Below, piece by piece: positions 29,571 to 59,034 of a stretch of DNA of 64,000 nt. The stretch comes from a bacterium. GTDB taxonomy: Bacteria; Patescibacteriota; Patescibacteriia; HK-STAS-PATE-3. The stretch lies in contig JAZDMR010000034.1 in assembly GCA_043800725.1 (NCBI GenBank), positions 4,374-68,373 of the forward strand. The letters run 5' to 3'. The notes below the pieces were generated by a model. That model was given only the letters and a program-made list of their open reading frames with translations. It did no database searches and was not told the origin of the DNA. A program made the position numbers and the translations under genes. Numbering within the stretch: position 1 is the first letter of the stretch; each line of letters starts with the position of its first letter.

Positions 29571-31628
29571 GTGATTCAATTTAATACTCCAGTCCAATCT
29601 CTGGCCCGAGTCGGTCTAAAAATCGCCTCCGCCTTAAACCGTTTGGAAATATTTACAGCGGCTGACTTGCTTAATCATTTTCCGTTTCGTTATGACGATT
29701 TTACGAAAATAGTGCCGATTGCCCGCCTAAAATCTGAAACGGTTGCTACGGTCCAAGGCAAAATAGAGCTAATCGGCAGTCGCCGTAGTTTTCGCAAGCG
29801 AATGGTAGTGACTGAAGCCGCTATCCGAGACGATACTGGTTATCTTAAAATTGTCTGGTTTAATCAGCCATATTTAAAAAAAATCCTCAAGCCCGGAGAC
29901 GATATTATGGTCAGCGGCAAAGTTAGCCTGCAATACGGCAGTCCCCAGATGCTTAGCCCTTCTTACGAAAAAATACAGGCTGAGCAAACTCACGTCGGCC
30001 GGATTGTGCCAGTCTATGGGGTGACTGAAGGTATAACGCCTAAATATTTCCGATCATTGATTAAACAAGTCCTGCCGCTGGCTAATAAAATTAGCGAGCC
30101 CCTGCCTGGGGCAATAATTAAACAAGAAAAATTATTATTCCAAAGCAGAGCAATTTCAGCTATCCATTTCCCTAAAACCAGCCAAGAGCTAGATAAGGCT
30201 CAGTATCGCTTGGCTTTCAACGAGCTCCTGCGCCTGCAATTAGAAAGCCGGCAAACAAAAAATCTCTTAAAAACCAGTCCGGCTAGTCAAATAACTTTTC
30301 AAAAGGAAAAGACTAAAAAATTTGTGGATCAGCTGCCGTTTCAGCTAACCAAAGCCCAGAAAAAATCAGCCTGGGAAATAATAAAAGACTTAGGCAGCCT
30401 CCACCCCATGAATCGCCTACTACAGGGTGATGTTGGCTCTGGAAAGACCGTGGTAGCCGTACTAGCCATGCTTAATGCCCATTGGAATAATTTCCAAGCA
30501 GTCTTTATGGCGCCTACGGAAATATTGGCTGAACAGCATTTTCAAACTATAACTAAGCTGCTTGGCCAGAATATAAACCTTGGCCTGCTTACCGGCTCAC
30601 AATCGAAAACCAGCCAACAGCCTGTTATTTCCAAGCAAGATTTAAAAGACCAACTGAAGCAGGGAAAGTTGCCTATTGTATTCGGCACTCATGCTTTAAT
30701 AGAGCAGGATGTTGAATTCAAATCTCTTGGCCTAGTAATCATTGATGAGCAACATCGCTTCGGGGTAAATCAAAGACAGACCCTAAAAGATAAGAGTTCA
30801 AAGCAAAACCAAGCCATGCCTCATTTCCTGTCTATGACCGCCACGCCCATCCCCCGCACTTTGGCTTTGACCCTCTATAGTGATCTGGATATTTCAACAA
30901 TTGACGAGCTGCCAAAAAACCGCTTGCCTATAATCACTAAACTGGTACCGCCGGATAAGCGCAATGAAACGTACGGGTTTATCCGCAAGCAGATTGATAA
31001 GGGTTTTCAAATCTTTATCATCACGGCTTTAATAGACGAATCTGATTCGCTGGGCATAAAAGCAGCCACCAAAGAGCATGTTCGGCTGTCTGAACAGATT
31101 TTTCCTGACTTAAATATCGGCTTATTGCATGGACGTTTGCCCGGTAAAACCAAAGAACAAATAATGAGGGACTTCGCTGATAATAAATTTAATATCCTAG
31201 TATCTACAGCAGTGGTGGAGGTGGGCGTGGATATTCCTAACGCAACAGTAATGGTAATAGAAGATGCCGAACGTTTTGGTTTGGCGCAGCTGCATCAATT
31301 CCGCGGCCGGGTCGGCCGTAGCAAGGCACAATCGTATTGCTTCCTATTTACCGAATCGACCGGCAAAAATGCCCGGCTGGACACCATGACCAAGATAACC
31401 GACGGCTTCGCAATTGCCGAAGCTGATTTGAAATTACGGGGCCCGGGCGAGCTACGGCGCGGCAAGCAGTCCGGCCTGCCGGATTTTGCCATGAGTTCGT
31501 TGCATGACATTGAGCTAATAAAAAAGACTCGCGATATAGCACGACAGATTCTAGAACAGGACCCGGAACTAACTAATTCCCCTCTCCTAAAACACTCCTT
31601 GTCCGATACTAGCATTCACTGGGAATAG
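29571..31628 (+). CDS. recG: ATP-dependent DNA helicase RecG (685 aa, GTG start).
   Basis: Wedge-domain N-terminus, helicase motifs GDVGSGKT and IIDEQHRFGV, and QLHQFRGRVGRS. Confidence 0.9.
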   Translation: MIQFNTPVQSLARVGLKIASALNRLEIFTAADLLNHFPFRYDDFTKIVPIARLKSETVATVQGKIELIGSRRSFRKRMVVTEAAIRDDTGYLKIVWFNQPYLKKILKPGDDIMVSGKVSLQYGSPQMLSPSYEKIQAEQTHVGRIVPVYGVTEGITPKYFRSLIKQVLPLANKISEPLPGAIIKQEKLLFQSRAISAIHFPKTSQELDKAQYRLAFNELLRLQLESRQTKNLLKTSPASQITFQKEKTKKFVDQLPFQLTKAQKKSAWEIIKDLGSLHPMNRLLQGDVGSGKTVVAVLAMLNAHWNNFQAVFMAPTEILAEQHFQTITKLLGQNINLGLLTGSQSKTSQQPVISKQDLKDQLKQGKLPIVFGTHALIEQDVEFKSLGLVIIDEQHRFGVNQRQTLKDKSSKQNQAMPHFLSMTATPIPRTLALTLYSDLDISTIDELPKNRLPIITKLVPPDKRNETYGFIRKQIDKGFQIFIITALIDESDSLGIKAATKEHVRLSEQIFPDLNIGLLHGRLPGKTKEQIMRDFADNKFNILVSTAVVEVGVDIPNATVMVIEDAERFGLAQLHQFRGRVGRSKAQSYCFLFTESTGKNARLDTMTKITDGFAIAEADLKLRGPGELRRGKQSGLPDFAMSSLHDIELIKKTRDIARQILEQDPELTNSPLLKHSLSDTSIHWE

Positions 31629-32657: not shown

Positions 32658-34001
32658 TTAGTAATTAATTATTATTTTCAAGGCTTCGCGAACTGTTTTT
32701 ACTTTTACTAAATTAATCTTACCTGCTTTCACTTGGCTGTTATGGCTCAATACAACGCGATTAAATCCCAGCTTCGTAAGTTCGACAATTCGCTTATCAA
32801 TATTTGAAACGCTTCTTAACTCGCCGCCCAAGCCCACCTCGCTAATCATGGCAGTTTTCGGATCCACTGACTTGTCTTTCAGGGCAGACGCAATTGCCGT
32901 GGCAACGGCCAAATCAGCAGCCGGTTCTTTGACTGATAGCCCCCCCACTACATTTAAATAAACATCTTGGGCTCCCAGCTTTAAACCAACACGTCGGCTT
33001 AGAACTGCCATAATCAATTGCAGCCTTTGAGCGTCTACTCCCATGGCGGTCCGCCGAGGCATACCGAAAACAGTGGGATTTACCAAGGCTTGCAGTTCAA
33101 CCAGCCAGGCCCTGCTCCCCTCAACTGTGGCAGTCACCACCGTACCGCTGCCTGGCTGGCGTTCTGATAAAAACATTTCCGAAGGATTGGGCACTTCCAC
33201 TAGACCGGTTTTATTCATGGAAAAAATACCAATCTCGTTGGTCGAGCCAAAGCGATTCTTAGCCGAGCGCAGCAATCGATACTGATGCTTATTATCTCCT
33301 TCTAAATACAAAACCGTATCAACCAAGTGTTCCAATGTTTTGGGGCCCGCTACGCTGCCTTCTTTTGTTACATGACCGATAATCAATACTGCACAGGTTT
33401 GCTTTTTGGCGAATTGAAGCAGCTGATTCGTCACTGTCCTTACTTGGGCTATGGTCCCCGCCTCAGACGGCAATAATGATGAGGTCATGGTTTGGATTGA
33501 GTCAACAATCAAGAAATCCGGCTTATTTGATTCAGCTGCGGCAATAATACTCTCGACTTCTGTCTCCCCCAAAAAGTCCATCATTTCGCCGGACAGTTTC
33601 AAACGATCTAAGCGAAGCTTTATCTGCTCTCCTGATTCTTCGCCCGAGACGTAAAGCGTTTTCTTTTTTTGCTCAGCCAGGCCGCTGGCAATTTGTACCA
33701 CCAAAGTCGACTTGCCAATACCCGGAGCGCCGCCCAATAAGCTAAGCGAACCAGGCACTATGCCTCCGCCCAATACGTGATCAAGTTCATTGATGCCGGT
33801 CACCAAGCGTGCCACGCCTTTTCCCTGAATTTCAGTAAACGAAGTGACATTGGGAGCTTTAACTTTTTCTAAGTTATTTTTCGTCTGGGATATTTGCGGC
33901 TCCAAAGTGCCCCAGGCCGAACACTCTGGACAGCGCCCTTGCCAGACAGGAAACTGATTATCGCATTTTGAGCACAGGAAGATGGTCTTACTTTTTGGCA
34001 T
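32658..34001 (-). CDS. radA: DNA repair protein RadA/Sms (447 aa).
   Basis: N-terminal zinc finger (CSKCDNQFPVWQGRCPECSAW), Walker A motif GGAPGIGKST, the KNRFG motif, and a Lon-like C-terminal domain. Confidence 0.9.
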   Translation of the reverse strand: MPKSKTIFLCSKCDNQFPVWQGRCPECSAWGTLEPQISQTKNNLEKVKAPNVTSFTEIQGKGVARLVTGINELDHVLGGGIVPGSLSLLGGAPGIGKSTLVVQIASGLAEQKKKTLYVSGEESGEQIKLRLDRLKLSGEMMDFLGETEVESIIAAAESNKPDFLIVDSIQTMTSSLLPSEAGTIAQVRTVTNQLLQFAKKQTCAVLIIGHVTKEGSVAGPKTLEHLVDTVLYLEGDNKHQYRLLRSAKNRFGSTNEIGIFSMNKTGLVEVPNPSEMFLSERQPGSGTVVTATVEGSRAWLVELQALVNPTVFGMPRRTAMGVDAQRLQLIMAVLSRRVGLKLGAQDVYLNVVGGLSVKEPAADLAVATAIASALKDKSVDPKTAMISEVGLGGELRSVSNIDKRIVELTKLGFNRVVLSHNSQVKAGKINLVKVKTVREALKIIINY

Positions 34002-34095
34002 GATAGCAAATAAACAATTCTATTATAATTTCAAACAAATATAAAATTACTAGCGTATAATAAATACAAATAATTCATAATCAGTAATTTAATAA

Positions 34096-35292
34096 TTATT
34101 CATTACTCCAGCCCCAACTCTGAGCTCTCTGATACATAGCTTCTACGGTAGGCACGTAAACGCGAGTCTCAGCATAACCGGGATTTTCCGAGCATTCCCA
34201 CCAGGTTAAGCCTTTGACATCACCACTTGGCGGACAAGAAATGGAGGAGCAATTGGCTGATAGACCGCCATTATAGGCGGCGATCATATAATGCCAGTTA
34301 TTAGTACAATTAGTATATTCCGGCTTACATTGAACGGTCTGACCGCTCTTATACGTAGCACGATCAGGACAAGCATTGCTTTTTAATTTTTTTAATAATG
34401 CTACGCCAGCCCTGATATTCTGCTCAGCAGTGGCTTCTCCTTTCAGGCAATTTCCGCCTGAGTTATACGGCATCACTTGCATTAGCCCGCAAGCTCCGGC
34501 TGGGGAAACCGCGTCTGGATTGCCTCGCGATTCAATCATCATTACAGCTTTGACATAAAAACCATCCAAATCGTTGGCCGCCGATATTTCTTTTATCAGG
34601 CTGTCCCATTTAGTTACATTCTGAATCGTGGAAACATCTCCGCCTTGAGGAAACGGGCTGGCCGGCGAGCCCTTTTCACTAGTCATCATATTTTCATCTA
34701 AAATAATAGCCGGCACTTGAAAAATCGATAAATCACGAAAGCTAACCAAGGAAGGATTAATCGTCCTTAAAATTACAAAAGAGCCCAAGGTCAAAAGTAA
34801 TCCGATCACGGCGCCATTCATGGTTGACTTGGCATTGGTAATTTTTGATGCGTCGCCCGCCGCGGTAATCCATTGTATGCCGGCGTATATTGTCATAACC
34901 GCGGCTAAAATCCCCACCACCCAGACAAAATAGACATAAAAAGATCTGATGTACCTACTGAGCAAGCTGCCATCAACCAGCTGCTTCCCTTCAAATACCC
35001 CGGGAATAGGCGCATTGGGCGTAAAATAAATCTCATCAGAAGTTTCCACTAGTATATCAATATCAGGCATGTCCCCAGGGCAGTCTGAGTCCAGTCCAGA
35101 CCATTGATATCCGCCCATTACTTCCTGGCAGCTGCTACCAGGATTGATATTTACACGGCTACACATTTCTTGTCCAAAAAATACATTACAGCAACACGTC
35201 TCATAGGCCTGTGCTGGACTGGGAATAAACAGCATCCAGGTAAGAAAAATCCCGAGTACCAAGAATAGACTAATTTTTAAAGTTAGGTTCAT
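34096..35292 (-). CDS. Secreted/membrane protein (398 aa) with a C-terminal lytic transglycosylase (SLT, VirB1-like) domain and an internal VirB2/TrbC-like two-helix hydrophobic segment.
   Basis: Signal peptide. SLT motif MMIESRGNPDAVSPAGACGLMQVMPY. Hydrophobic hairpin FYVYFVWVVGILAAVMTIYAGIQWITAAGDASKITNAKSTMNGAVIGLLLTLGSFVIL, shared almost identically with ORF 37234..38367. Confidence 0.65.
   Translation of the reverse strand: MNLTLKISLFLVLGIFLTWMLFIPSPAQAYETCCCNVFFGQEMCSRVNINPGSSCQEVMGGYQWSGLDSDCPGDMPDIDILVETSDEIYFTPNAPIPGVFEGKQLVDGSLLSRYIRSFYVYFVWVVGILAAVMTIYAGIQWITAAGDASKITNAKSTMNGAVIGLLLTLGSFVILRTINPSLVSFRDLSIFQVPAIILDENMMTSEKGSPASPFPQGGDVSTIQNVTKWDSLIKEISAANDLDGFYVKAVMMIESRGNPDAVSPAGACGLMQVMPYNSGGNCLKGEATAEQNIRAGVALLKKLKSNACPDRATYKSGQTVQCKPEYTNCTNNWHYMIAAYNGGLSANCSSISCPPSGDVKGLTWWECSENPGYAETRVYVPTVEAMYQRAQSWGWSNE
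34817..34944. repeat. ~128-nt near-identical DNA repeat (copy 1), shared between the two VirB2-like genes; copy 2 is at 37970..38095.
   Basis: Direct comparison: about 6 mismatches over ~126 aligned nt. It encodes the conserved two-helix hydrophobic hairpin. Confidence 0.7.
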
Positions 35293-35927
35293 GTTGACAA
35301 GAGTCCAGCAATTAGATTATCCATGAATTCAAAAGTCGGCGCTTCTTTGATAAGAAACCGGTCAATAAAAATGGTAGGCGTGGTATTTATCCCAAAGGCC
35401 AGCCCGCTCTGAACGCTTGACTCAACCAAATTCCTGGACACTAAACCACCCTGGCAATTAGTAAATTCTTCCACGTCCAAATTCAAATCTGCGGCAATAC
35501 GAGTATATGTTTCCGGCCCTAAACTTTCTTGATTTTGGTACAATGCATCATGGTATTCCCAGAAAGAATATTGTTGCTGGGCGCAGCGAGCCGCCACGGC
35601 AGCCTCTTTCGCTTTTGCGCGAATGCTCTCAACGGGAAAATCTTTCCAGACCAATCTGATTTGTGAACCGTATTTTACAGATAATAACTGATACACTTCA
35701 TGCCACTGTTTGCAGAATTCGCATTGAAAATCGCTGTATTCTATTATTGTCACAGCAGCCTTTTCCGAGCCGCGAACGGGATCAGTCAATTCTATTTCAG
35801 GCAACTTGCTTGATAGATTCGGCGAGCTAGGTATTCTAATCGCCCACCAGGTAAAGCCAGCCAATACCAAAATACTGGCGATATAAAGCCAAGTAACAGA
35901 TTTATTTGATTTGGTTTCTTGGTTCAT
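35289..35927 (-). CDS. DsbA-family thiol-disulfide oxidoreductase (thioredoxin fold, membrane-anchored, 212 aa).
   Basis: N-terminal TM segment, CxxC active site (DFQCEFCKQWH), and a DsbA-like length and layout. Confidence 0.7.
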   Translation of the reverse strand: MNQETKSNKSVTWLYIASILVLAGFTWWAIRIPSSPNLSSKLPEIELTDPVRGSEKAAVTIIEYSDFQCEFCKQWHEVYQLLSVKYGSQIRLVWKDFPVESIRAKAKEAAVAARCAQQQYSFWEYHDALYQNQESLGPETYTRIAADLNLDVEEFTNCQGGLVSRNLVESSVQSGLAFGINTTPTIFIDRFLIKEAPTFEFMDNLIAGLLST

Positions 35928-37177
35928 TATTTAAGCTTTATGGTTCTGATTAAGCCCTGGCCATCGCTAAAATACAGCTGATCGCCCTGGGCCGATAAAA
36001 ACACCTTATCAACCGAATATTGCGCCGTACCGCTTGTATCAGTCGGCTGAGCCAGTAATTGCTTGCTGCCCGAGGCAATATCAATCTGGTAGAATTCATA
36101 CGGCAGTGAATCGCTCAACTCAGGATATAACCCGCTGCCTCGAGGCAGGCCGATCGGCACGGCACAATAAACAGTGTTTGTATTTGAGCCAAAAGAGCAT
36201 TTATCAGGCCAAGTATTTACTCCCAAGTGTTGATTGTTTCGCCCGAGACTGTTGCCCTGTGACTGCACGATATAAAGCTCCGGATTATAAGAGGTAGCGG
36301 AGTTATAGACGCTGTAAAGAAGCCTGGCTCCACTCTGGTCATACATACCCTCAAAGCCCCGGCCATTTGTTTCAATAGATTTGAAGTTTTCACCCTGAAG
36401 GCCCAGCGGGATGATTTCCTGCCTTTCCGCGTTAATGGATTGCTGGTATGTTGCCACAATCTGAGAATTTGGCGACCAGTTGACAGTCACCTGACTGGCC
36501 TTTTCTCCCAGCGGCTCGATAACCTGCGCTTCGGAACCATCAGAATTAATAATCGCCAGCCAGTTATCTCCGGGAGTAGGGCCGATAAACTTTGCCGCCA
36601 GCTTGGTCGAATCAGGCGAAAAAGAAAATTCCTCCAGCTCTGTGGGCAGGGTTGCCTGCTTTTTGGTACGGAAATCATAGGTAATATTGGCGCCGTCTTG
36701 AAAGCCCAGAACTGCCACATCCTTGTTGGGAGCCCAGGTGACATCTTCAACCCCTTTAAAAATCTGGTCCGTCATGATAGTTCTTTGGGCGCCGGTTCGA
36801 TCCAGCTTATAAAACTTGCCTGTCAGAGGATCATAATACTGCATATCCACGCCGTTGCCTGCCAAGCTCAAGAATTTGGATTGGGTGTCCACTACTGCCG
36901 GAGCAATCGTTTTTCCCCCGTTAGCCACATCGGTGGGAGCCGGCAAACTGATATTGGTAAGCTGGACTGCCTGGCCTGTATTGGCATTTGTATCAACTGT
37001 GCGATTAATGTCACCGTTGACATTTGGCAACTGTCCGTTTGACAGTTCATTGCTGTTTTCATCCTCAGTCGGCGCCGGCGCAATAAAAGCCATATACAAA
37101 AGTAGGCCGATAATAAATACGGCGATTAAAAAGGCAGCTATGTAAATAATTTTTCTCCAGGGTATTGATTCGAACAT
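35927..37177 (-). CDS. Secreted beta-propeller protein, TolB/PD40-like (416 aa).
   Basis: N-terminal TM/signal segment. PD40-like blade motifs (FSFSPDSTKLAAKF, WSPNSQIVATY, GDQLYFSDGQG). Confidence 0.6.
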   Translation of the reverse strand: MFESIPWRKIIYIAAFLIAVFIIGLLLYMAFIAPAPTEDENSNELSNGQLPNVNGDINRTVDTNANTGQAVQLTNISLPAPTDVANGGKTIAPAVVDTQSKFLSLAGNGVDMQYYDPLTGKFYKLDRTGAQRTIMTDQIFKGVEDVTWAPNKDVAVLGFQDGANITYDFRTKKQATLPTELEEFSFSPDSTKLAAKFIGPTPGDNWLAIINSDGSEAQVIEPLGEKASQVTVNWSPNSQIVATYQQSINAERQEIIPLGLQGENFKSIETNGRGFEGMYDQSGARLLYSVYNSATSYNPELYIVQSQGNSLGRNNQHLGVNTWPDKCSFGSNTNTVYCAVPIGLPRGSGLYPELSDSLPYEFYQIDIASGSKQLLAQPTDTSGTAQYSVDKVFLSAQGDQLYFSDGQGLIRTIKLK

Positions 37178-37233
37178 GAGTCTAGTTTTTTAGTAGTAAT
37201 TAATACAAATTCGAAATTGCGATAATAAAATCA

Positions 37234-38367
37234 CTAAGAGCACGGCATACCACATCTATTCCATATTTTTTGGAAATCAAAGTTAAACTCTTTTGTAGCC
37301 GGACCGCCGGGAGTAATAGGTATTTCAAAAATAAAGCAGTTTGATTCATTTTCTGGATCAGCTTGCTTACAGAGAGTGTGGAAGTAGGGGGTCCCAGATT
37401 CAAAATAAACATCCAGCCAAAACTGAGTCAGTGGTACTGGGTCTTGACTTTCTGATTTCAGAATAAAGCTTTTATTTAATTCAAAATTTTCCTCACCTTC
37501 CAATGTTCCGACCTTATGTTTATCATTATCACAATCCGGACAAGTGCGCCAAAGTTCAATTCTATTTAGTTTTTTTCCGTCAACCACGCTGACAACTTTC
37601 CCTCTGATTTCTATGAAGTTATCATAATAGCCGCACTGATAGCCACCTCCGGTACATGAGTCATACGGATCATGTTCTCCTTTACAGGGTAAGCAGGATT
37701 GAGTATTATAGGGGCAAGACTGGCTCAGGCAGAACAGGTCACCTTTTTCTTTCTTAGAATCTTCATAATGATAAACATCTCCGCAATAAACCTCTGCACC
37801 GGTCGCATATTTTTGGTAATCTATCCCATCTAGGGTCCGACAGAAATCACCAGCAAATTTTGGTTTTACTCCGATAACGGACGGCACTCTTAATTTCACT
37901 AAATCAGGGTTTATCGCGGCTAACAGCACATACGAGGTAAGAACGAGTATTAGGCCTATGACTGCTCCGTTCATGGTTGACTTGGCATTGGTAATTTTTG
38001 ATGCGTCGCCCGCCGCGGTAAGCCACTGTATGCCGGCGTACATTGTCATAACCGCGGCTAAAATCCCCACCACCCAGACAAAATATACGTAAAAACCCTT
38101 GATATAAGTTGATATTGCCGCGCTGCCGTCTCCGCCAATAAAATTGTGAGTTTGTATCCCGCCCGTGGTTTTGATACACTTAAGCGTTTCAGTAACGCCT
38201 GGCAAGGGAATATTCAAATGCACCTTGCCTGTGACTTGGCTGATAAAATTTGCGTCATCACATCTAAGCAAGACTCCTTCTTGGGCATAAGTTAATACGG
38301 GCATCAGGGCAAATAAAAAACCTGCCCCCATAATGCAAATTATAATTTTTTTTGTTTTGCTCGGCAT
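37234..38367 (-). CDS. Secreted/membrane protein (377 aa) with the VirB2/TrbC-like hydrophobic hairpin and a Cys-rich C-terminal domain; paralog of 34096..35292.
   Basis: Signal peptide. Shared segment FYVYFVWVVGILAAVMTMYAGIQWLTAAGDASKITNAKSTMNGAVIGLILVL. Cys-rich C-terminal region (CLSQSCPYNTQSCLPCKGEHDPYDSCTGGGYQCGYY...CPDCDNDKH). Confidence 0.55.
   Translation of the reverse strand: MPSKTKKIIICIMGAGFLFALMPVLTYAQEGVLLRCDDANFISQVTGKVHLNIPLPGVTETLKCIKTTGGIQTHNFIGGDGSAAISTYIKGFYVYFVWVVGILAAVMTMYAGIQWLTAAGDASKITNAKSTMNGAVIGLILVLTSYVLLAAINPDLVKLRVPSVIGVKPKFAGDFCRTLDGIDYQKYATGAEVYCGDVYHYEDSKKEKGDLFCLSQSCPYNTQSCLPCKGEHDPYDSCTGGGYQCGYYDNFIEIRGKVVSVVDGKKLNRIELWRTCPDCDNDKHKVGTLEGEENFELNKSFILKSESQDPVPLTQFWLDVYFESGTPYFHTLCKQADPENESNCFIFEIPITPGGPATKEFNFDFQKIWNRCGMPCS
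37970..38095. repeat. Copy 2 of the ~128-nt near-identical repeat (see 34817..34944).
   Basis: Direct comparison. Confidence 0.7.
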
Positions 38368-38386
38368 TCGGTGTTTGAGTAGTTTT

Positions 38387-39220
38387 TTATAAATTTATTA
38401 CTTCTGCTAGCTTGTCCAAAATAAGATTCCAAAGTATCTCTTTATAATTCTGAAACACATAAACAATTGCAAAGAGAATAAATAACCAGACCAGAGTAAG
38501 TACTACAAAAATAAGTGCTTTGGCGCCCCGCACTACCAGTTCAGGCGGCGTCATCGAAGGTACTAGCGCTAATTCGAAACCTTTGACATTAATCGTAAAC
38601 ATTTTACCCAATAAATTTCCGATAAACAGCCGTACCCCAAACAAGGCTAAGGGGATGATTGATAAAAATGGCACCCAGAAGTAGACAAGAGCTGCTTCTT
38701 CTAGGGCTTCATGGGCAATTTTCCATACCGCTCTCTGCGCCTGTACTGCTAATTGCTCGCCGACGGCTATAATTTGTTCTTTTGCGACCGACATGCCGAT
38801 TGCCTGTTTCTGGCCGCCGATTGCTTGTCGCGCCCTGCGAAGAGCGGCCATCGGGCTTCTTGAGAGGGTTTCGGAAGATTCGGTTTTACTGGAGGATTTA
38901 TCAGATATTATTAGATTGTTTTGCTTTGTTTGTGCTTGTTTATCAGTTCGCCTCTCCTGCTGAAGCCGTCTTCTCCGGTCATCTGAACTGACAGGCTGCT
39001 CTTGGGCCATTAACTGATTGTCTTCCTGATAATCTTCCTCCTGATCAGTTCCGTTTTCTGGCATTTGTTCTGGTTGTAAAGAGCTAGAAGATCCCGGAAG
39101 TTTTATCTTCGATTGGCTAGTCTTGGGCCTTACCAGCCGCCGTTCAGCTCGATAACTGCGCCGATGCTGACGCTCGATCCCAGGCACTGGCTGCGTAGTT
39201 GTTGCTTCATTAGCCACCAT
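38387..39220 (-). CDS. Membrane protein (277 aa) with a charged, low-complexity N-terminal half and ~4 C-terminal TM helices.
   Basis: Hydrophobic C-terminus (VYFWVPFLSIIPLALFGVRLFIGNLL...ALIFVVLTLVWLFILFAIVYVF). It overlaps the downstream gene by 11 nt. Confidence 0.5.
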   Translation of the reverse strand: MVANEATTTQPVPGIERQHRRSYRAERRLVRPKTSQSKIKLPGSSSSLQPEQMPENGTDQEEDYQEDNQLMAQEQPVSSDDRRRRLQQERRTDKQAQTKQNNLIISDKSSSKTESSETLSRSPMAALRRARQAIGGQKQAIGMSVAKEQIIAVGEQLAVQAQRAVWKIAHEALEEAALVYFWVPFLSIIPLALFGVRLFIGNLLGKMFTINVKGFELALVPSMTPPELVVRGAKALIFVVLTLVWLFILFAIVYVFQNYKEILWNLILDKLAEVINL

Positions 39221-39803
39221 TTCCTCCCGGCTGGATGCTGGACGGCTTCCATTCTGCTCCGTCGACTAGCCAGCGACCTCCCTGAAAAATAAAGGTTAAA
39301 GACAGTGTTTCATAGTACTCAACGTCTGGCGCGCCAACTCGCTTCTCCGTCCGGACGACCGAGACATCAACCTTGGCTTGAGTTTGCGCTTGCCAATTTT
39401 TTATCAGGGTAGACAAGCTGTGACTGGCGATTGAGCTGAGCGACTCAGCGGCTTCTACCGACTCATGGGTCGACCTCATAACGCTCGAATATGCGGTGGT
39501 CAGCCAGGGCTTCAATTCCAGCAAGTACTCAGAGAGCGACCCCGATGACCAGCTGCCGTATCGTTCGGCAAAGCTTCTGGCAATTCCCAGTAGCTCAGCC
39601 TGTTCAGTTACTTCGATTGTCTGGATCACCGCGCTATTGGTGCCGCTATTTATAGTCACTGTCTGATTGGCATTGGCGACCACTACATTGCTGTTATTGA
39701 TATTGGCTTGATCATCAGTATCTCGCCCTAAAAGCAAGGCAATAACCGCGGCGACCGTCAGAACCACGGCAATGATCATTATGATAATAAATATTCGGCG
39801 CAT
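39210..39803 (-). CDS. Membrane-anchored periplasmic protein (197 aa); VirB8-position protein, function unknown.
   Basis: Single N-terminal TM segment (IFIIIMIIAVVLTVAAVIALLL). It lies between the VirB4-like gene and a membrane-protein gene. Confidence 0.45.
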   Translation of the reverse strand: MRRIFIIIMIIAVVLTVAAVIALLLGRDTDDQANINNSNVVVANANQTVTINSGTNSAVIQTIEVTEQAELLGIARSFAERYGSWSSGSLSEYLLELKPWLTTAYSSVMRSTHESVEAAESLSSIASHSLSTLIKNWQAQTQAKVDVSVVRTEKRVGAPDVEYYETLSLTFIFQGGRWLVDGAEWKPSSIQPGGNGG

Positions 39804-39823: not shown

Positions 39824-41836
39824 TTAGCCTAAGCCCTCGGTCTGACTGATTGACCTAGTGGCGGTTGTGGTTTCTTGTCCTGGGGTTTGTTCTTGTATTC
39901 CGCGAGCAACTTCTTCGGGGTTCTGACCGGAGGCTAATGCATCATCAAACTCTTCTTTGGCTTGCTCGATTTCCAGCAGTTGTCTGGGGTCAGAAGTAAT
40001 AATTTGATCTTCAGTATAACTGGCCACAACTTTAATGGCCGCGTGTTTGGCTCCGGCAAAAAATATGCCTTCTCCCACATTACACTCCAGCAATAAATAC
40101 TTTTCCCCTTGAGTGAGCAGAAAAGTCTTTTGGACTATGTCGATTCCGGCTGAAGACTGTTTCATTAGCAGCTGCAAAGCCGAGTTATTGACAATGGCCT
40201 GGCCATAAGGCGAGCGCAGAAAATCGTTAACGTCCTGGGTAATGGTGGTCACGCCCAAATAATACTTGCGGCACCTTTTAACCAGGGCGTAAATAAACTT
40301 GGCCGAATCCTCATGCTGCATTAACCACCAAGCTTCATCAATCACTAGAATCCGTTTTTTCATCTGAGAACGGACTATATTCCAGATATATGTCACGATA
40401 GTCGAGATGCCCACCGGCCGTAATTCATCTTCTAAATCACGAACGGAAAAAACCACCAGCTGATTATCTAATTCAATATTAGTGGCGCTATTGAAAAGAC
40501 CAGCAAAAGTCCCTTCGGTAAATTTTTTCAGGCGCTCGACCAGGTCTTTGGTACCGACCATGTCGGTAAGAACCTCTTCCAAATCCTTCATCAGGGGCGA
40601 TTCGACATTGGATAAATCTGAATCAGGGGTAATGTCTTTCTTGGCATAGGTCTCCAGCAGAGCTCGGTCAATCAGTGAATCCTCCTCATGAGTCAGCTCG
40701 CCTAGCATTAGGCGGAACAGCGATTTAAGGGTAATCACCGCGGAGCGGATAACATCGGCGGTTTTTTCTTCGCTGTGCTTCGGTTTGGGCAGATCAAAAG
40801 GATTTATCTTGGAATCTGCATTCAATGAAATATTTATATAAGTACCGCCCACTGCATCAGATAAATGCTTATATTCCATTTCCGGATCAATAACAATCAC
40901 GTCTGTGCCCAGCATCAGGCTGCGCAATATTTCCAGCTTAATAGCATAGCTCTTACCTGCGCCGGCAGTAGCAAAAACCACAAAATTGGCATTTTGCAGG
41001 CTGAACCTGTCAAATAAAATCAAGCTGTTGTTGTGGCGGTTAATTCCATAAAGTATGCCATTATCTGAAGTCAGATCCGAAGAAATAAAGGGGAAAGACG
41101 AGGCAATCGGCGACGAACTCATATTATAAGTAACCTGCAATTCATCATTGCCCAGAGGAATTGTAGAATTAAATCCTTGCTCAGCTTGGAAAAATGACCG
41201 TTTAGAATAAATTAAACGGCCGCCAAGCATTGACTCGATCTTTTCGGTAAGCAAATCAAGATAGTCTTTCCGGGTCGAATAAAGGGTAACGTACAGGGCG
41301 AATTGGAAAAACTTCTCTGTCCCCTGGGTTAAATCATCTCTTAACTTTTCAATATCTCGCAGGGCGGTCTCACGCACCGGATCACGAGGCGCTCCTTTTT
41401 CCGCATCGGAAATTATCTGAGCCTCCAAAACACCCACTTTATTCCTCAGCTGCTTGAGAATTACCGAGGATTCAATAGGATAAAAAAACATGCTGATATC
41501 CAGAGGAATATTAAAATTTATTATTGGCGCAAACCAACCTACAGAAATATACCGGGGGTAGGAAACAATGAATAAAGTGCGCACGTATTGGCTGCCTAAG
41601 CGAATAAAATCAGCTTCTACCTTCATGGCCGCGGGAGCAATTAAATCTCTGACCGTGACTACCCCGGCCCGATAGATTCTTTCTGACTCGAGTAATTCTC
41701 TTTCTTTTTCCGCTTGCTCGTGTTCCGACTGCTCTTTTTCGGATTCGCTAATTTTCTTCTTCATGGGAGCTGGGGGCTCTGTTCTGCCGGTAGCTTTGGC
41801 TAAATCAATTTCTGGCATATTCGCCTCCTTCAACAT
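39824..41836 (-). CDS. VirB4/TraC/TrbE-family type IV secretion ATPase (670 aa).
   Basis: Walker A motif FATAGAGKSYAIK, the DEAW Walker B motif (RILVIDEAWWLM), and a family-typical C-terminal region. Confidence 0.8.
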   Translation of the reverse strand: MLKEANMPEIDLAKATGRTEPPAPMKKKISESEKEQSEHEQAEKERELLESERIYRAGVVTVRDLIAPAAMKVEADFIRLGSQYVRTLFIVSYPRYISVGWFAPIINFNIPLDISMFFYPIESSVILKQLRNKVGVLEAQIISDAEKGAPRDPVRETALRDIEKLRDDLTQGTEKFFQFALYVTLYSTRKDYLDLLTEKIESMLGGRLIYSKRSFFQAEQGFNSTIPLGNDELQVTYNMSSSPIASSFPFISSDLTSDNGILYGINRHNNSLILFDRFSLQNANFVVFATAGAGKSYAIKLEILRSLMLGTDVIVIDPEMEYKHLSDAVGGTYINISLNADSKINPFDLPKPKHSEEKTADVIRSAVITLKSLFRLMLGELTHEEDSLIDRALLETYAKKDITPDSDLSNVESPLMKDLEEVLTDMVGTKDLVERLKKFTEGTFAGLFNSATNIELDNQLVVFSVRDLEDELRPVGISTIVTYIWNIVRSQMKKRILVIDEAWWLMQHEDSAKFIYALVKRCRKYYLGVTTITQDVNDFLRSPYGQAIVNNSALQLLMKQSSAGIDIVQKTFLLTQGEKYLLLECNVGEGIFFAGAKHAAIKVVASYTEDQIITSDPRQLLEIEQAKEEFDDALASGQNPEEVARGIQEQTPGQETTTATRSISQTEGLG

Positions 41837-42503
41837 TTACTTTTGATAAATCAGCGAACTTTTGTTGTCCTACGGATTCTGGATTGTAAGTGTTGTAATA
41901 AAGCTCTATCAGGCTCTGAGTGTCTAGCATTATGGACTTCAATCCGCTGGCGCTCAATCCATCAATCACGTAATCAGCCCGCTTGAGCAGCTCTTCCCGG
42001 TAAATCATGAATTGCCGTTGTTTAAGATGAATAACCGTCGAGGGCGATAACGCTTCTAGAATCCTATTGAAAAATCTTTTTGGCTTGTCCGAATGCGGCA
42101 TAAAAGGAATAACCACATAAAATCGCTTGGACATTAAATCGGCAATCTGAATCAGCTCGCTGACATACTCCCGATATTCCCTGGTTTGCATTCTGAGCAG
42201 CTCATTGCGCTGGCCTAGTTCGCTTTCTTTCAAGCGCTCTAAATAATTATCAATATTCAGCTTGCGAGATTGAATAACAATCTGAATGGAAAAATCCAAA
42301 GAGTTTAAAAACTGCGTATAGCTGGCAATAACCGCGTTCTGCTCTTCTTCTGACTTGAGTGAAAAATTGATTGATGAAACTAATAATACGGCGCGGATAG
42401 TGCCGTCTTTCAAAACAACGATATCGTCCTTGATCTCGAGAATATCAATATACCGCTGAGTCGGTATTACGTTTCGTTTTTGTTTTGCCGGTTTATTCGC
42501 CAT
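41805..42503 (-). CDS. VirB4 N-terminal-domain-like protein (232 aa) encoded separately; together with 39824..41836 it suggests a split VirB4.
   Basis: Pattern QRYIDILEIKDDIVVLKDGTIRAVLLVSSINFSLKSEEEQNAVIASYTQFLNSL, resembling VirB4/TraC N-domains. It overlaps the ATPase gene by 32 nt. Confidence 0.45.
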   Translation of the reverse strand: MANKPAKQKRNVIPTQRYIDILEIKDDIVVLKDGTIRAVLLVSSINFSLKSEEEQNAVIASYTQFLNSLDFSIQIVIQSRKLNIDNYLERLKESELGQRNELLRMQTREYREYVSELIQIADLMSKRFYVVIPFMPHSDKPKRFFNRILEALSPSTVIHLKQRQFMIYREELLKRADYVIDGLSASGLKSIMLDTQSLIELYYNTYNPESVGQQKFADLSKVNVEGGEYARN

Positions 42504-42999
42504 TATTGTTATCCGATAATTTTTCAGACTGTCGTTGAATCTTAATATCGGGGGTTAATTCTCCCTCATCGGGAGCATGGTAAGCCCCTCCAGTATCAAC
42601 CACTAAAGAAAGAGCAGCCAATCTGGATTTGGTTAAAACCTTTTTTTTGATATCCGGCGTAGTAATAGTGATATCCAAATCTTTTTTCCTTAATTCTGAA
42701 GTGCTGACCTGTTTATTCCAGATGCGCAGTCTCGGTTCGCGAATTGTAATTATCAAGTTCAATAGAAAAAGATGAAAAGGGCGCCCGTTTACTCTGACAA
42801 AGGCCAAAACAATAGTAATGACCGCTAAAATAATTGCGCTGAATAGAAAAAACCAAAAGTTGTTATTCAACCGATAAATCAATTCATAGCTGAAAAAAAT
42901 CAAGCCTACTCCGGATAAAAGAATTACAAACTGCCGAACGGAGATCGGGCCGATTACCTTATCTTCCACGTCAATGAATTGTGGTACTACAAATTGCAT
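42493..42999 (-). CDS. Small two-TM membrane protein (168 aa); VirB3/PrgI-like candidate.
   Basis: Two hydrophobic helices. Its position immediately upstream of the VirB4 genes matches the conserved VirB3-VirB4 order. Confidence 0.4.
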   Translation of the reverse strand: MQFVVPQFIDVEDKVIGPISVRQFVILLSGVGLIFFSYELIYRLNNNFWFFLFSAIILAVITIVLAFVRVNGRPFHLFLLNLIITIREPRLRIWNKQVSTSELRKKDLDITITTPDIKKKVLTKSRLAALSLVVDTGGAYHAPDEGELTPDIKIQRQSEKLSDNNNGE

Positions 43000-43005
43000 A
43001 TTTTT

Positions 43006-44385
43006 TTAAAAACGCAGCTTTCTATTTAAATCCACGATAGCGTGGTATTCAGCTTCTGTTAAGAGGGGCTGAGAAGCGATTTCCCTTGCTTTAACTACCT
43101 CCTTGATGTCCAGGCCTTGCTCCAGGCTCTCGCGGCTCATTGATAAGTACAGCTTATGAGTCGGACTTTGCCGCCAAGCCTGTATGCCCTCGATCCGCTT
43201 GCTAAAAGATTCCTGCCCGAGCAATGTTATCTTTTCATACACTTTTCGCACTTGACTTCCAGAATCTTCCCCTAACTTGCGAAATCCCTCAATCGACAAG
43301 CTTCCTAATTCTTCTACGGGTCCGACTAATCGACGCGGTCTGTCTGGAGCCTTGATATCTTCAACTATCGGCCGATCTGATTGTGTGGCTAATCGTATCG
43401 GAATGACCGGCCGATTTGTAGCTTGATATTTTGGAACGGGGGCAGGAGTATTTTCAGCTTTTACTGGCACCTGGCTTGATCCAGCTTCGGAGCCAAGAGC
43501 CGCAGCGGCTTTGCTGGCAGGTTGAAGATTTTTTTTCGACAGGAAGGGCTCGGGAATTTTTGGAGGTTTGGGAATCGGTGCCTCTAGCCGGACCGCTGCT
43601 GGGCTTGGATGAACTGACGGCAATTCATCGCGGACTTTATCAGACGCTTTATTAAAATCTTCGGCAACTGCTTGAGCTTGATTCTGCTCTAAGCCTAAGC
43701 CTCCGATCTTGGGTGTTCGAGTTAATAATTCCCGCGTCTCTCTGGAGCTTCTAATCTCTTTTAATCGCGCGGTGCCAATAGCGAAAAATCTTTTTTTTAT
43801 CAGATCGCTGTCCAAAATAAGATGATTTTTTTCAGCTATCCTTTCCAAAAGAGAATCAATGTCATGACCATCCTCAAGATCAAAGCTGGACAGGCGATTG
43901 GTATTCCGGCGTATTTCTTCTTCATCCTCTGGTGATTCATATGAAACGGGCACTGGTTTATGAGCCGAACTGGACTCTAGTTTAGCCTGAAAAGCGCCTA
44001 CCGACTTGGGCAATTCCCCAAAAGATGCCGCTGGCTTGCTCTTTTTGAAAACGGAAGGAGGTTGATCAACAAAATGGCCTAATTGAAAAAACTTAATTTC
44101 TCCCGAGACATTCCGTACCGGCACCCTGGCCTCGCCAGGCTGGCTAATCTTGCTTTTTATCAGGGAAACCGGGGTTGTCTGAGCCAGCAAATCCAGGAGC
44201 GGTGAATACCTCTGAGTAATCGGATTATTGGGATCACTGGGCAATAAGCGCTTAAGATACGAAAGCAGGGTGTTGGCTTTATTGGCATCACCGCTGTTAT
44301 TTATAACGCCTACTTCTTCCTTAATTATGGCTAAAGTAGCTGGTTGATTAATTGTACTGCCATTGATCGTTGATAGATCTAGCAT
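43006..44385 (-). CDS. Hypothetical Pro-rich protein (459 aa).
   Basis: ORF with coding periodicity and tight spacing inside the cluster. No recognisable motif. Confidence 0.5.
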   Translation of the reverse strand: MLDLSTINGSTINQPATLAIIKEEVGVINNSGDANKANTLLSYLKRLLPSDPNNPITQRYSPLLDLLAQTTPVSLIKSKISQPGEARVPVRNVSGEIKFFQLGHFVDQPPSVFKKSKPAASFGELPKSVGAFQAKLESSSAHKPVPVSYESPEDEEEIRRNTNRLSSFDLEDGHDIDSLLERIAEKNHLILDSDLIKKRFFAIGTARLKEIRSSRETRELLTRTPKIGGLGLEQNQAQAVAEDFNKASDKVRDELPSVHPSPAAVRLEAPIPKPPKIPEPFLSKKNLQPASKAAAALGSEAGSSQVPVKAENTPAPVPKYQATNRPVIPIRLATQSDRPIVEDIKAPDRPRRLVGPVEELGSLSIEGFRKLGEDSGSQVRKVYEKITLLGQESFSKRIEGIQAWRQSPTHKLYLSMSRESLEQGLDIKEVVKAREIASQPLLTEAEYHAIVDLNRKLRF

Positions 44386-44865: not shown

Positions 44866-46245
44866 TTAAACTATTTTTGACGACATTAGCCCGTCTTCAG
44901 GTCGAATATCCGTTTTAGCCCAGCGATATCCTTCAGCACCCAGATCAAAATAAGCAAAAGTCGCTTCTGGGCCCACTTTTCCTTCCGGCATTAAGCTTGC
45001 CAAATGGACCATTAATCGCGCAGCATCGTTTTCCGATCCGGCTGCCTTATTAAATAGCAGTCTTAGAAATTCTTTAAGCATAATTAATCGATTGGTCGGC
45101 AAATCGACCGCCCGGCTGGCAATCTCAGACGACAGCTGAAAAGCCGACTGGAGATACGGCAAAACCGCTGATCGCATAACCCGGATCATGCTTGCTTCCG
45201 TTAATATCGGCTCCATCCCGAGCTCACGCACTATCTGGAAAAAGCCGGCCACCGCTCGCCCTGAATCCCCTTTTGCTAATGCTTGGTCTGCCAAAGTCGC
45301 CAGCTGCGCCACGCTGGATTTCTGCAGAGCAGGCAGCTCTTTTTCAATCGTTTCAAAGTGTCTGATTAAATTCTGGCTGTTGGTTAAGCTGGCTTGGACA
45401 ATCTGTTCCTCAGTTTTACTTGGCTGGCTGGGAATATTATCCGGAGCCGGGATGGCGGGTTTGCCGGCTGGGCTAAACTGATTGCTATACAGCTTATTAA
45501 TCGGCCTAACAAAACCATCGGGGACTTGGTTAACAGGAGTGATTTTTTCTTCGCCCTGCACAGATAATACCGGACCTTCTTCAAACCTAAGGATATTAAA
45601 CCAATTAAATAATTTATTAAGAAGCTGTATTTCTTCTTCTGGTAGATCTTGCACATTAGGACTTTTAGCGATATATTCAGCGATCATTACATTACCGCTG
45701 GATGGATGGTTAGTGGCAAATTTTTCATAGTCGTCAATCCAGTTTCCAATCGTCGGGTCAACTGTAGCGCCAGTATAAATCTTAATACGCTTTGTGCTGA
45801 TTAATTCGGTCGCTGTCCTTAGTCCATTTGTCAAAGCATCCAGCCACCTTATAATATAGTCGGGTAATACTTCTTTTGACAGCAAGAGCATGGTTATGAC
45901 CTTATTTATTTCGGTATATTCCGATTCAAAAATAGGCAAGGCATGTGCGCTGATAAAAGATTTAACTTGTTCCGGAGACCAGGAACTAATCTGCCAAAAT
46001 TGACCAATCGCCCTAATCGCTTCAATCTCAGTCTTTATCTCCTTGGAAAACGTCATTCCGGGAACGCTTTTTATTTTCTGATCTAGGATTTCAAGAAAAC
46101 TGCCTGCCGCGCCGGATTTTTCCCGATAATACGGGTGATCAATTGATTTGCGAATAAGGCGCAGGGCTTCTACGCTGTTTAATTCGTCCGCTTCAATCAG
46201 AGACAATTCAGCGGGGTATATTGGATCGAGGTCTGGAATTGGCAT
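44866..46245 (-). CDS. Hypothetical protein (459 aa).
   Basis: ORF 15 nt downstream of the VirB6-like gene. No recognisable motif. Confidence 0.5.
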   Translation of the reverse strand: MPIPDLDPIYPAELSLIEADELNSVEALRLIRKSIDHPYYREKSGAAGSFLEILDQKIKSVPGMTFSKEIKTEIEAIRAIGQFWQISSWSPEQVKSFISAHALPIFESEYTEINKVITMLLLSKEVLPDYIIRWLDALTNGLRTATELISTKRIKIYTGATVDPTIGNWIDDYEKFATNHPSSGNVMIAEYIAKSPNVQDLPEEEIQLLNKLFNWFNILRFEEGPVLSVQGEEKITPVNQVPDGFVRPINKLYSNQFSPAGKPAIPAPDNIPSQPSKTEEQIVQASLTNSQNLIRHFETIEKELPALQKSSVAQLATLADQALAKGDSGRAVAGFFQIVRELGMEPILTEASMIRVMRSAVLPYLQSAFQLSSEIASRAVDLPTNRLIMLKEFLRLLFNKAAGSENDAARLMVHLASLMPEGKVGPEATFAYFDLGAEGYRWAKTDIRPEDGLMSSKIV

Positions 46246-49200: not shown

Positions 49201-49457
49201 GCATTTATAAAATCATTATATTGAGCAACGGCAATCAGAATATTAACAATTATTATAAACAAATTGGCTAACATTTGGACTATCGGGTAGAGTATTCCAT
49301 TGATAAACCAATTCGTAACTGTATCCCCTGGCCCTGCCAAAACACTGCTCTGAGGAAACAGCAGCATACAGACAGCCAAACCGCAGGCCATAATCAGGCC
49401 AACCTGGGTAGGACGATGTTTTTTTATTAATTTTCCAATTCTTGCGAAGTTCTGCAT
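46260..49457 (-). CDS. VirB6/TrbL-like polytopic membrane protein (1065 aa) with a ~650-aa charged, coiled-coil-rich C-terminal extension.
   Basis: N-terminal ~400 aa carry 6-8 TM helices with TrbL/VirB6-like spacing. The remainder is strongly K/E/D-rich. Confidence 0.55.
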   Translation of the reverse strand: MQNFARIGKLIKKHRPTQVGLIMACGLAVCMLLFPQSSVLAGPGDTVTNWFINGILYPIVQMLANLFIIIVNILIAVAQYNDFINAVAVVKGWVIVRDLCNMFFIVFLLIIAFGTIFKLEQYRYNRLLGKLIIYAFLINFSKFIAGFWIDIGQVIMLTFVNGFKDAAAGNLASGLGMSNMLTLADNPSVGDVSGTGIYIAVLLAIALLMIAVIVVVIMTITLIFRVIMLWLLIVFSPLAFLTRVFPNTAKYSDQWWGEFNKYIMVGPVMAFFLWLSMTIISVTGADARYEFKEVSKREGSAVIGQVYGTGGGTAMNMSAAISKISESDRLLTYMITIGLLLGSLQAAQQLGVAGSKIAGDWSQKIRTGGLTAAGVLSGVAGARLAMRAARGGVKMAGGAIGRKAVEGIKIGKSMPLSYLTKEFWGGVKARGEERGQITKDWMKAKGRTRIDAFHKRFLGHLPKSSVTDYEEIFRRNLLMTNHAESEKILGSNPTTEKIVQALNAAEKTGGNEGIEDRGGRLISGVKHGNFDDWNQDKIKREIKATKKGKDKKATEEEIIRLMEQHGFDPDVEDHRHYNEETGHHMKVMLMDYLKLDREKYDPDLLAQRELKKIHPEEDWDDLLVRAYVDKEQKALAIIDPIIKKANETTRDNARKAGTEDRFKLMQLETQGELSLENGGHVEQRWGKYDEEEAFAYVMSEPEAAASSMTLLRKQGAQHVYEKSSPHSEVPRYNSLTDGEVKISTDYKNMSVLGRMKLSMAEDATERILSRTAVRIKNQTLGVEGDITNDEAVFTKFGSFYRGDKAEHERIQKEHKLKTGDDITLDEASDIREAQSRDRATALEEISPIAYQKWYRNKFHGNADRADYLVPDPKNKEEGTQEWVVKNVQMAKSSAHMGERIGAVKAEFTVPEEHKVERTEVHNKIINEATTVADESEKVSDSLPKNEEGLTNALHQVSGQMDSIANSIEDLSKSMKEPKIKEELESLAEEIKKNKQSVSNRREFYGGGEQSQKNYFRESGMLLRKLVSAVQESTVEPTSKIGEKAKGDKEDEKKPKPDSGAGPDKK

Positions 49458-49466
49458 TATTATTTA

Positions 49467-54113: not shown

Positions 54114-54198
54114 AACTGACTAATAATTATACCTTATTTATCACCCAACCAATAACTTTTTAATTTTTAATTCGTGATTACTATTGGGCAGTTATTTC

Positions 54199-58773: not shown

Positions 58774-59034
58774 GGTGGTGATGTTAGTTGATGATTGGTA
58801 ACTAGTAGTTACGAATTATTTAGTTACTTATTTAATGTATATTAATTATGTTACTTTCTTACTGACTTTTCCGCCTGAGGCGGATGCGCCTATGGCGCAA
58901 GTCAGGTTGTTAATTAATGCGCCTACGCTGCTCCCTACTGCACTCGCCTGACAGCAAAGTTGTTGGCGGGCAGGAAAGTGATTTTGAAGCTACTAGTAAT
59001 TGCTATTTATTAATTAATAATTGATAACTTTTTA

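Follow-up and report, generated by a model that had tools for sequence, protein, structure and literature searches.

The stretch analysed here (the window) comprises 64,000 nucleotides (nt) of contig JAZDMR010000034.1 from a patescibacterial genome (assembly GCA_043800725.1). It carries two genes, here named gene A and gene B, each of which encodes a type IV secretion system (T4SS) pilin domain within a protein that is otherwise divergent from the other. Inside these domains a short segment of DNA is nearly identical between the two genes, and the origin of this segment is the subject of the present work. The two genes, the homologous cores that they share and the two copies of the repeated segment, a putative conversion tract, are located as follows.

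34096..35292, minus strand: gene A, 398 amino acids (aa), with a signal-peptide-like N-terminus, a Cys-rich N-domain, a T4SS_pilin hairpin and an SLT lytic transglycosylase domain
37234..38367, minus strand: gene B, 377 aa, with a signal-peptide-like N-terminus, a short N-domain, a T4SS_pilin hairpin and a Cys-rich, beta-rich C-terminal domain
34744..34962, minus strand: protein-homologous core of gene A, 73 codons, synonymously saturated in the part 3' of the tract
37897..38115, minus strand: protein-homologous core of gene B, 73 codons
34817..34932, minus strand: putative conversion tract, gene A copy, codons Y121-M158
37970..38085, minus strand: putative conversion tract, gene B copy, codons Y95-M132

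Both genes had been called VirB2-like in a preliminary description of the window. The Pfam profile T4SS_pilin (PF18895, cutoff 26.6 bits) was matched by gene A with 31.6 bits (1.7e-07) and by gene B with 35.0 bits (1.5e-08), and the profile score, the predicted topology and the T4SS gene context all placed the two proteins in PF18895. However, a small pilin has about 70-120 aa when mature and consists of the hairpin only, whereas in the 398-aa and 377-aa proteins the hairpin is preceded by ~60-90 aa and followed by a folded domain of ~210-220 aa. The VirB2-like designation is thus suitable with respect to profile, topology and context but not to size, and the two products, four times as large as a classical VirB2 pilin, are better called pilin-domain fusion proteins.

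The C-terminal half of gene A matched Pfam SLT (3.1e-15), and in a profile search it matched the solved structures of MltC, EmtA and Slt70 (2e-12 to 1e-6). The SLT motifs ('…MMIESRGN…GLMQV…AYNGG'), including the catalytic Glu-Ser motif, were present. Gene A encodes 14 Cys residues and gene B 17, and the N-termini (…SPAQA/YE and …LTYAQ/EG) were recognised as signal-peptide-like by visual inspection of the translations and not by a predictor. In the AlphaFold2 model of gene B, long antiparallel helices at residues 83-117 and 122-152 are followed by beta strands; the hairpin modelled alone had a predicted local distance difference test (pLDDT) score of 86.6. A Foldseek comparison of the hairpin model with the PDB returned generic helical hairpins only (E>0.6), the fold being too simple for a tie to VirB2, and a profile search found no pilin among the PDB sequences. 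The comparison with the full-length model of gene B was dominated by its C-terminal beta domain. This domain (residues ~170-377; 37234-37870, minus strand) was predicted to be beta-rich with a pLDDT of about 85-90, and it gave weak fold matches (E about 1e-3) to transthyretin-like, immunoglobulin-like, type II secretion system pilotin and Gram-positive pilin domains. It matched no Pfam family, and its homologues were few, with 5 open reading frames (ORFs) in the loci collected for comparison.

A repeat search of the entire 64-kb window returned a direct repeat, 34802-34953 versus 37955-38106, with a start-to-start spacing of 3153 nt, and this pair was the sole repeat of at least 40 nt with high identity. 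When gene A was compared with gene B by blastn, a single significant high-scoring segment pair was obtained (141 nt, 92.9%, E=6e-58), and all remaining pairs had E>0.1. The preliminary description had reported a near-identical repeat of ~128 nt in two otherwise divergent genes. Both statements were confirmed, as the interval 34817-34944 differed from the interval 3153 nt further on at 7 of 128 positions (94.5% identity), and the even identity across both genes that a simple duplication would leave was not seen. Its first interval was correct, but the second should end at 38097 and not at 38095. The sharpest definition of the tract was 34817-34932 versus 37970-38085, which is 116 nt with 3 differences (~97% identity). 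The differences fall at 34869, 34873 and 34888, two of the three change an amino acid, and the longest exact run is 52 nt. The two copies lie on the same strand in direct orientation, in the same reading frame and codon register, and at an offset of exactly 3153 nt. No third copy was found within the window by tblastn, blastn or the search for repeats of at least 40 nt.

The tract sits in an in-register homologous block of 234 nt, which is 74% identical overall (60 differences). When the differences of this block were permuted, none of 100,000 permutations gave a 52-nt run or a 116-nt stretch with 3 differences or fewer. At the protein level the two cores share 81% amino-acid identity over 73 residues (tblastn and blastp), and the 3' boundary of the tract falls within the homologous core of both genes. 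In the tract lie the codons of the hydrophobic helix 1, of the TAAG turn and of the first, polar third of helix 2. The hydrophobic rest of helix 2 and an 'INPxLV' motif are protein-homologous but lie outside the tract, and in the hydrophobic part of helix 2 the DNA identity between genes A and B is only about 48-55%. Therefore, the repetition of a two-helix hairpin, as it was first described, holds from helix 1 through the turn to the beginning of helix 2, but not for the rest of helix 2.

The simplest account of the repeat would be purifying selection on the protein together with codon bias, with no transfer of DNA at all, and the hairpin core is indeed extremely conserved in protein across the clade. 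The codons of the tract do not fit this account. Within the tract A and B agree in the encoded residue at 36 of 38 codons, and among the informative codons with the same amino acid 31 of 32 are identical, compared with an expectation of 0.34 from the codon usage of this genome. By contrast, identity is seen at only 4 of 25 informative codons for the same amino acid in the homologous flanks (Fisher p=1.8e-10, with a conservative 30/31 taken for the tract). Directly 3' of the tract, none of 11 consecutive informative codons for equally conserved residues (N G A V I G L L L S V) is the same in both genes. For a run of 16 identical silent codons, permutation gave p=0.0015 and the codon-usage model p<5e-5.

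The amino-acid states of the tract were also compared with 12 clade relatives. Four substitutions (T->A, N->D, S->A and E->T) occur in both A and B but in none of the 12 relatives, and a fifth, R->K, is present in both genes and in 1 of the 12. All five of these unique or rare states lie inside the tract and are encoded by identical codons in A and B. Shared unique substitutions with identical codons are what is expected if the changes arose in one copy and were then pasted into the other. The tract thus holds derived states that occur in both copies and not in the orthologs of either.

For a wider comparison, 160 loci around VirB4 homologues were collected, with nine more around close homologues of A and B. 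The gene order pilin B, 416-aa gene, DsbA, pilin-SLT and RadA (the neighbours are listed below) was also found in four other contigs, namely L162, which is the complete genome CP060223.1, and L167-L169. The paralog cores of L167 are about 83% identical in protein, with a codon identity of 0.30 compared with 0.34 expected. In L162 the protein identity of the cores is 90% and their codon identity 0.47, and the longest stretch of exactly matching DNA is 14 nt. Since both genomes keep the protein core without DNA identity, protein constraint alone does not give DNA identity. Purifying selection with codon bias is thus already refuted by the flank and relative controls, and it is hardly credible as the origin of the repeat.

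Synonymous sites that are conserved between two copies could also mark a functional element at the nucleotide level, such as an RNA structure, the target of a small RNA or riboregulator, or a protein-binding or recombination site, which is selected in both genes. The helix-1 DNA of L168, L169 and L170, which is 88-99% identical among all copies, would accord with such an element. Nevertheless, the tract of the window is only 65-76% identical in DNA to every A-type and B-type copy in other genomes, compared with 97% between its own paralogs, so that no nucleotide-level element is conserved across genomes. In addition, the paralogs of L167 and L162 are near or at synonymous saturation. An Rfam scan of 33500-39500 at E<=1 found no family over either copy of the repeat, and the folding energies of both copies on both strands were no different from those of shuffled sequences (z from -0.19 to +0.97); on these two results an RNA element was rejected. 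A selected nucleotide element of any kind is highly improbable. The same scan gave a match to MAT2A_A at 36587-36653 (plus strand), in the 416-aa gene between the copies (22 bits against a gathering cutoff of 40, E=0.21). As MAT2A_A is a eukaryotic family, the match was taken as chance.

From these results, the repeat is very probably the footprint of a recent ectopic gene conversion, that is, an intragenomic and non-reciprocal one, between the two pilin-domain paralogs. A recent conversion or recombination limited to the pilin-like core had already been proposed in the preliminary description, and the codon evidence and the controls in related genomes agree with it. A structural constraint for co-assembly had been offered as a reason for the limitation. 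The confinement of the tract to the core can be understood without such a constraint, because the core is the only place where A and B are homologous; co-assembly nevertheless stays attractive as an explanation of why the cores have been matched over the long term.

The same segment might instead have been given to both genes by a third source, for instance the homologous gene of another strain received by transformation. Patescibacteria are thought to take up DNA. Moreover, the GC content at third codon positions (GC3) is 0.58-0.63 in the tract, above the 0.40-0.44 of genes A and B and the 0.48 of the adjacent homologous codons. This rise amounts to only about 2 standard deviations over 38 codons and is equally explained by GC-biased gene conversion, which may have raised it, or by chance. 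With a third source, the segment would have had to enter twice, independently and at almost identical end points, so that a single event is the more parsimonious account, and neither a third copy in the window nor a closer homologue among 5.8 billion proteins was found. The chance that a third source was involved is accordingly very slim.

The proposed gene conversion would have taken place as follows. Genes A and B would be ancient paralogs that share only a membrane hairpin of ~73 codons, which is under very strong protein-level constraint. Being the only homologous and strongly constrained segment, the hairpin is also the only place where the genes are similar enough in nucleotides to pair, and because of the same constraint a replacement there changes almost nothing in the protein. 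RecA-type pairing between the two cores may have led to strand invasion and a heteroduplex, in which the donor sequence would then have been fixed by repair or replication from helix 1 through the turn into the first part of helix 2. In this manner ~116 nt of one pilin-domain gene would have replaced the homologous sequence in its same-strand paralog at a distance of 3.15 kb. Since the 3' end of the tract lies inside the homologous region, the synonymous sites switch abruptly from identical to saturated. The three internal differences could be later mutations or the result of patchy mismatch repair. Each conversion would raise the identity of the two copies and so ease the next one, until drift at silent sites erodes it. 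Events of this kind have apparently recurred in the gene pair across Patescibacteria, with a concerted evolution of the hairpin cores as the result and ordinary orthology in the flanking domains (SLT in one protein and the Cys-rich beta domain in the other).

The grouping of cores was monitored in a dereplicated set of 26 genomes that have two pilin-domain genes downstream of VirB4. The mean core identity was 71% between the paralogs of a genome, 46% between positional orthologs and 45% in cross comparisons, and the paralogs were more similar than the orthologs in 95% of 325 genome pairs. In the 22 residues that precede the core, the identity between paralogs was 14%. When orthology was fixed by the SLT fusion (14 genomes), the corresponding values were 70%, 47% and 45%, and the paralogs were more similar in 92% of 91 pairs. 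Sister genomes (L168/L169 and L007/L008) still grouped by ortholog. This grouping of cores by genome looks like the signature of an episodic homogenisation, or concerted evolution, that is confined to the core.

An excess of codon identity between paralogs was found in L127 (p=1e-7), L169 (1e-5), L168 (2e-4), L020 (9e-4), L082 (2e-3) and L025 (3e-3), and was absent in most of the other collected genomes. The helix-1 run of L168 had p=1e-4 against codon usage. The tract of the window is the freshest, with an exact run of 52 nt compared with no more than 35 nt in the other genomes. On the metagenome contig L127 (13335-14450 and 16395-17576), the cores of the two paralogs have a DNA identity of 87% over all 73 codons, and 48 of 61 informative codons are identical (p=1e-7). 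This is a slightly older homogenisation of the whole core, unlike the partial tract of the window. A further pair of adjacent pilin-domain genes, L085 14023-15069 and 15203-16465, is 64% identical in the N-terminal flank as well and looks like a recent tandem duplication, not an ancient A/B pair.

In L168, L169 and L170, three assemblies, the helix-1 DNA is 88-99% identical among all copies, paralogs and orthologs alike, and the rest of the core is 75-89% identical. L168 was tried as a clean independent tract and was rejected, since the same DNA is 88-97% identical in its sister genomes and the event is not that of L168 alone. These copies may reflect a conversion in the common ancestor followed by slow decay, which does not fully explain the excess across genomes.

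Several observations weigh against gene conversion or limit what can be said of it. The high helix-1 identity between L168, L169 and L170 blurs the dating of the event in that subclade, and the saturated older cases could in principle reflect a parallel co-evolution of two interacting hairpins. RecA was not seen within the 64-kb window, where only RadA and RecG were present. Closer relatives were sought with VirB4 in GTDB genomes and metagenomes, as well as in a set of 5.8 billion proteins, and in that protein set the nearest relatives shared 56-60% amino-acid identity with gene A and 42% with gene B. As no relative is closer, donor and recipient are not assignable, and no state of this lineage from before the conversion was observed. 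The tract is as far from the A-type orthologs as from the B-type ones, and the synonymous sites of the relatives are saturated. A VirB4 fragment with 88% identity (L160) lies on a 2.3-kb contig that ends before the pilin genes.

Furthermore, the source is a contig of a metagenome-assembled genome (MAG), and the 116-nt length of the tract is within the range of short reads and assembler k-mers. If reads of one paralog had been mis-assigned during assembly or polishing, a diverged stretch could have been homogenised artificially. However, the copies are not identical, as there are three internal differences with two amino-acid changes. Each gene is an intact reading frame, and the gene order agrees with that of the complete genome CP060223.1 and of three further contigs. 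In unconverted relatives, moreover, the longest exact runs are only about 14 nt and the core DNA is ~70-75% identical, which is too diverged for the cross-mapping of reads. An artefact would also have to copy real lineage-specific states common to both copies, and comparable, more decayed tracts exist in independent assemblies. An artefact of assembly or polishing is consequently improbable.

The remaining features of the locus are the two genes between the copies, the secretion genes upstream of gene B and two recombination genes next to gene A.

35289..35927, minus strand: DsbA-like thioredoxin gene between the copies (Pfam Thioredoxin_4 5.8e-26, DSBA 2.7e-11)
35927..37177, minus strand: 416-aa gene between the copies, with a sub-threshold Pfam match only and a faint beta-propeller signal
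39824..41836, minus strand: VirB4-like ATPase (Pfam P-loop_TraG 1.4e-30, AAA_10), the signature gene of the secretion cluster
42493..42999, minus strand: PrgI (VirB3-like) gene of the same cluster (Pfam PrgI 1e-08)
32658-34001, minus strand: RadA/Sms, directly downstream of gene A
29571-31628, plus strand: RecG, near gene A

The VirB4-like, TraC-like and PrgI genes lie directly upstream of the pilin-domain genes on the same strand. The relatives of the VirB4-like protein at 70-79% identity were all Patescibacteria MAGs, labelled Kerfeld-, Falkow-, Parcu- or Nomurabacteria. The DsbA-like and 416-aa genes occupy the same position in L162 and L167-L169, and a DsbA-like gene directly upstream of the pilin-SLT gene was also found on the shorter contigs L165 and L171. 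The position of the DsbA-like gene between two pilin-domain genes, in which the 14 and 17 Cys residues belong to the extracytoplasmic parts of the proteins, suggests a dedicated disulfide-forming partner. RadA keeps its position next to the pilin-SLT gene in L162 and L167-L171; the presence of RadA and RecG beside a recombining locus is probably a coincidence of synteny.

At 46260-63924, upstream of the secretion cluster and likewise on the minus strand, lie four ORFs of very large size (1065, 1548, 1524 and 1629 aa). The 1065-aa ORF corresponds to a weak TrbL/VirB6-like match in L162, and the other three, which bear Big_7, fn3, Glucodextran_B and CBM_4_9 domains, probably encode giant proteins of the cell surface. 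Two ORFs of 459 aa each (43006-44385 and 44866-46245, minus strand) were considered as a second converted pair. They were unrelated to each other (E=0.19), their equal length is coincidental, and neither matched a Pfam family.

The preliminary description had also presented the repeat as a substrate for deletion or inversion. As the copies are direct repeats, unequal recombination between them would remove or duplicate the intervening 3,153 bp, and only the inversion has to be discarded. The product of a deletion would be an in-frame chimera in which the N-terminus and helix 1 of gene B are joined to helix 2 and the SLT domain of gene A, and the C-domain of gene B, the 416-aa gene and the DsbA gene would be removed. 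No chimeric protein with a B-type N-terminus and an A-type C-terminus occurred in the lists of A and B homologues, and loci with a single pilin gene, such as L001 and L003, were without SLT.

The pilin-SLT fusion of gene A combines a VirB2-like hairpin with a VirB1-like SLT domain. In at least 14 Patescibacteria genomes, the second of the pilin-domain genes downstream of VirB4 encodes such a fusion, and it was found in the window and in L007, L008, L009, L012, L013, L087, L090, L146, L162 and L167-L171. Other members of the family carry an amidase (PF01510) or lysozyme (PF00959) domain instead of SLT (P0014 and P0015). A 2025 survey of T4SS in Patescibacteria reported that most genomes with VirB2 have no VirB1, and the pilin-SLT fusion is not mentioned in it (PMC12102498).

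The concerted evolution of the hairpins in an SLT enzyme and a Cys-rich protein suggests that both may plug into the same assembly. A further-reaching speculation, possible but doubtful, is that the hairpin is a shared and interchangeable membrane module and that conversion keeps the wall-cutting SLT enzyme and the Cys-rich beta-sandwich protein, a putative adhesin, matched for one assembly, a heteropolymeric VirB2-like stalk that displays large extracellular domains, with the pilin-SLT fusion as the 'missing VirB1'. If so, conversion would be not just tolerated but the means by which both subunits co-evolve; otherwise the matching of the cores may merely be tolerated. As a testable hypothesis, one docking or polymerisation interface may be common to the SLT-fused and the Cys-rich 'pilins'.

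The window offers a clean and well-bounded example of conversion in a phylum for which almost nothing is known about recombination. The wider value lies in the 14-26 Patescibacteria genomes in which the hairpins of two architecturally different T4SS proteins appear to evolve in concert while the rest of the proteins do not. Trees and ortholog assignments made from the PF18895 domain in these genomes would group by genome and not by function. Moreover, homologous recombination would act on substrates of about 100 nt in these reduced genomes.

Gene conversion between paralogs is a textbook mechanism, and the window is a new example of this known process. In tufA and tufB of Salmonella and in ribosomal RNA operons, ectopic conversion keeps paralogs near-identical at synonymous sites while orthologs diverge. 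There, however, the whole gene is homogenised, whereas here the effect is limited to 116 nt of a 73-codon island in otherwise non-homologous genes. The pilE/pilS system of Neisseria and the msp2-type systems of Anaplasma likewise involve short, non-reciprocal transfers between paralogs of pilin or surface-protein genes in one genome. In these systems, variable exposed segments are moved from silent truncated cassettes into one expression site for diversity. A cassette system for antigenic variation was rejected for the window, because there are only two copies and each of them lies in a complete ORF that has a start codon and a signal-peptide-like N-terminus. Moreover, the transferred segment is the most conserved, membrane-embedded part, and the effect is homogenisation, not variation.

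In the Patescibacteria survey, VirB2-like genes were described in arrays near virB4, either in tandem or separated by non-pilin genes, with amino-acid identities of 25% on average and 54% at most, and gene conversion is not mentioned (PMC12102498). For the one strain that was tested, the same survey reported the secretion system as essential to its epibiotic lifestyle (PMC12102498). The genes of the window resemble these arrays in the phylum, in PF18895 and in the divergence of the whole proteins, but differ from them in a sub-segment that is 97% identical in DNA.

The Trw system of Bartonella comes closest as a precedent. In it, according to two later articles that cite the original study, the duplicated pilus genes trwL and trwJ recombine and evolve in concert (Nystedt et al. 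2008, Mol Biol Evol 25:287, cited in PMC2883598 and PMC3483213). The same articles note that conversion among the copies makes ortholog assignment difficult (PMC2883598, PMC3483213). As in the window, the Trw genes are VirB2-type pilin paralogs in one T4SS locus, and the copies group by genome or lineage. In Bartonella they are tandem whole-gene duplicates of small pilins, with the emphasis on the diversification of surface-exposed parts. Compared with Bartonella, the two genes of the window are not in tandem, as two genes lie between them, and they have different architectures; only the membrane hairpin is homogenised, and the exposed domains are unrelated.

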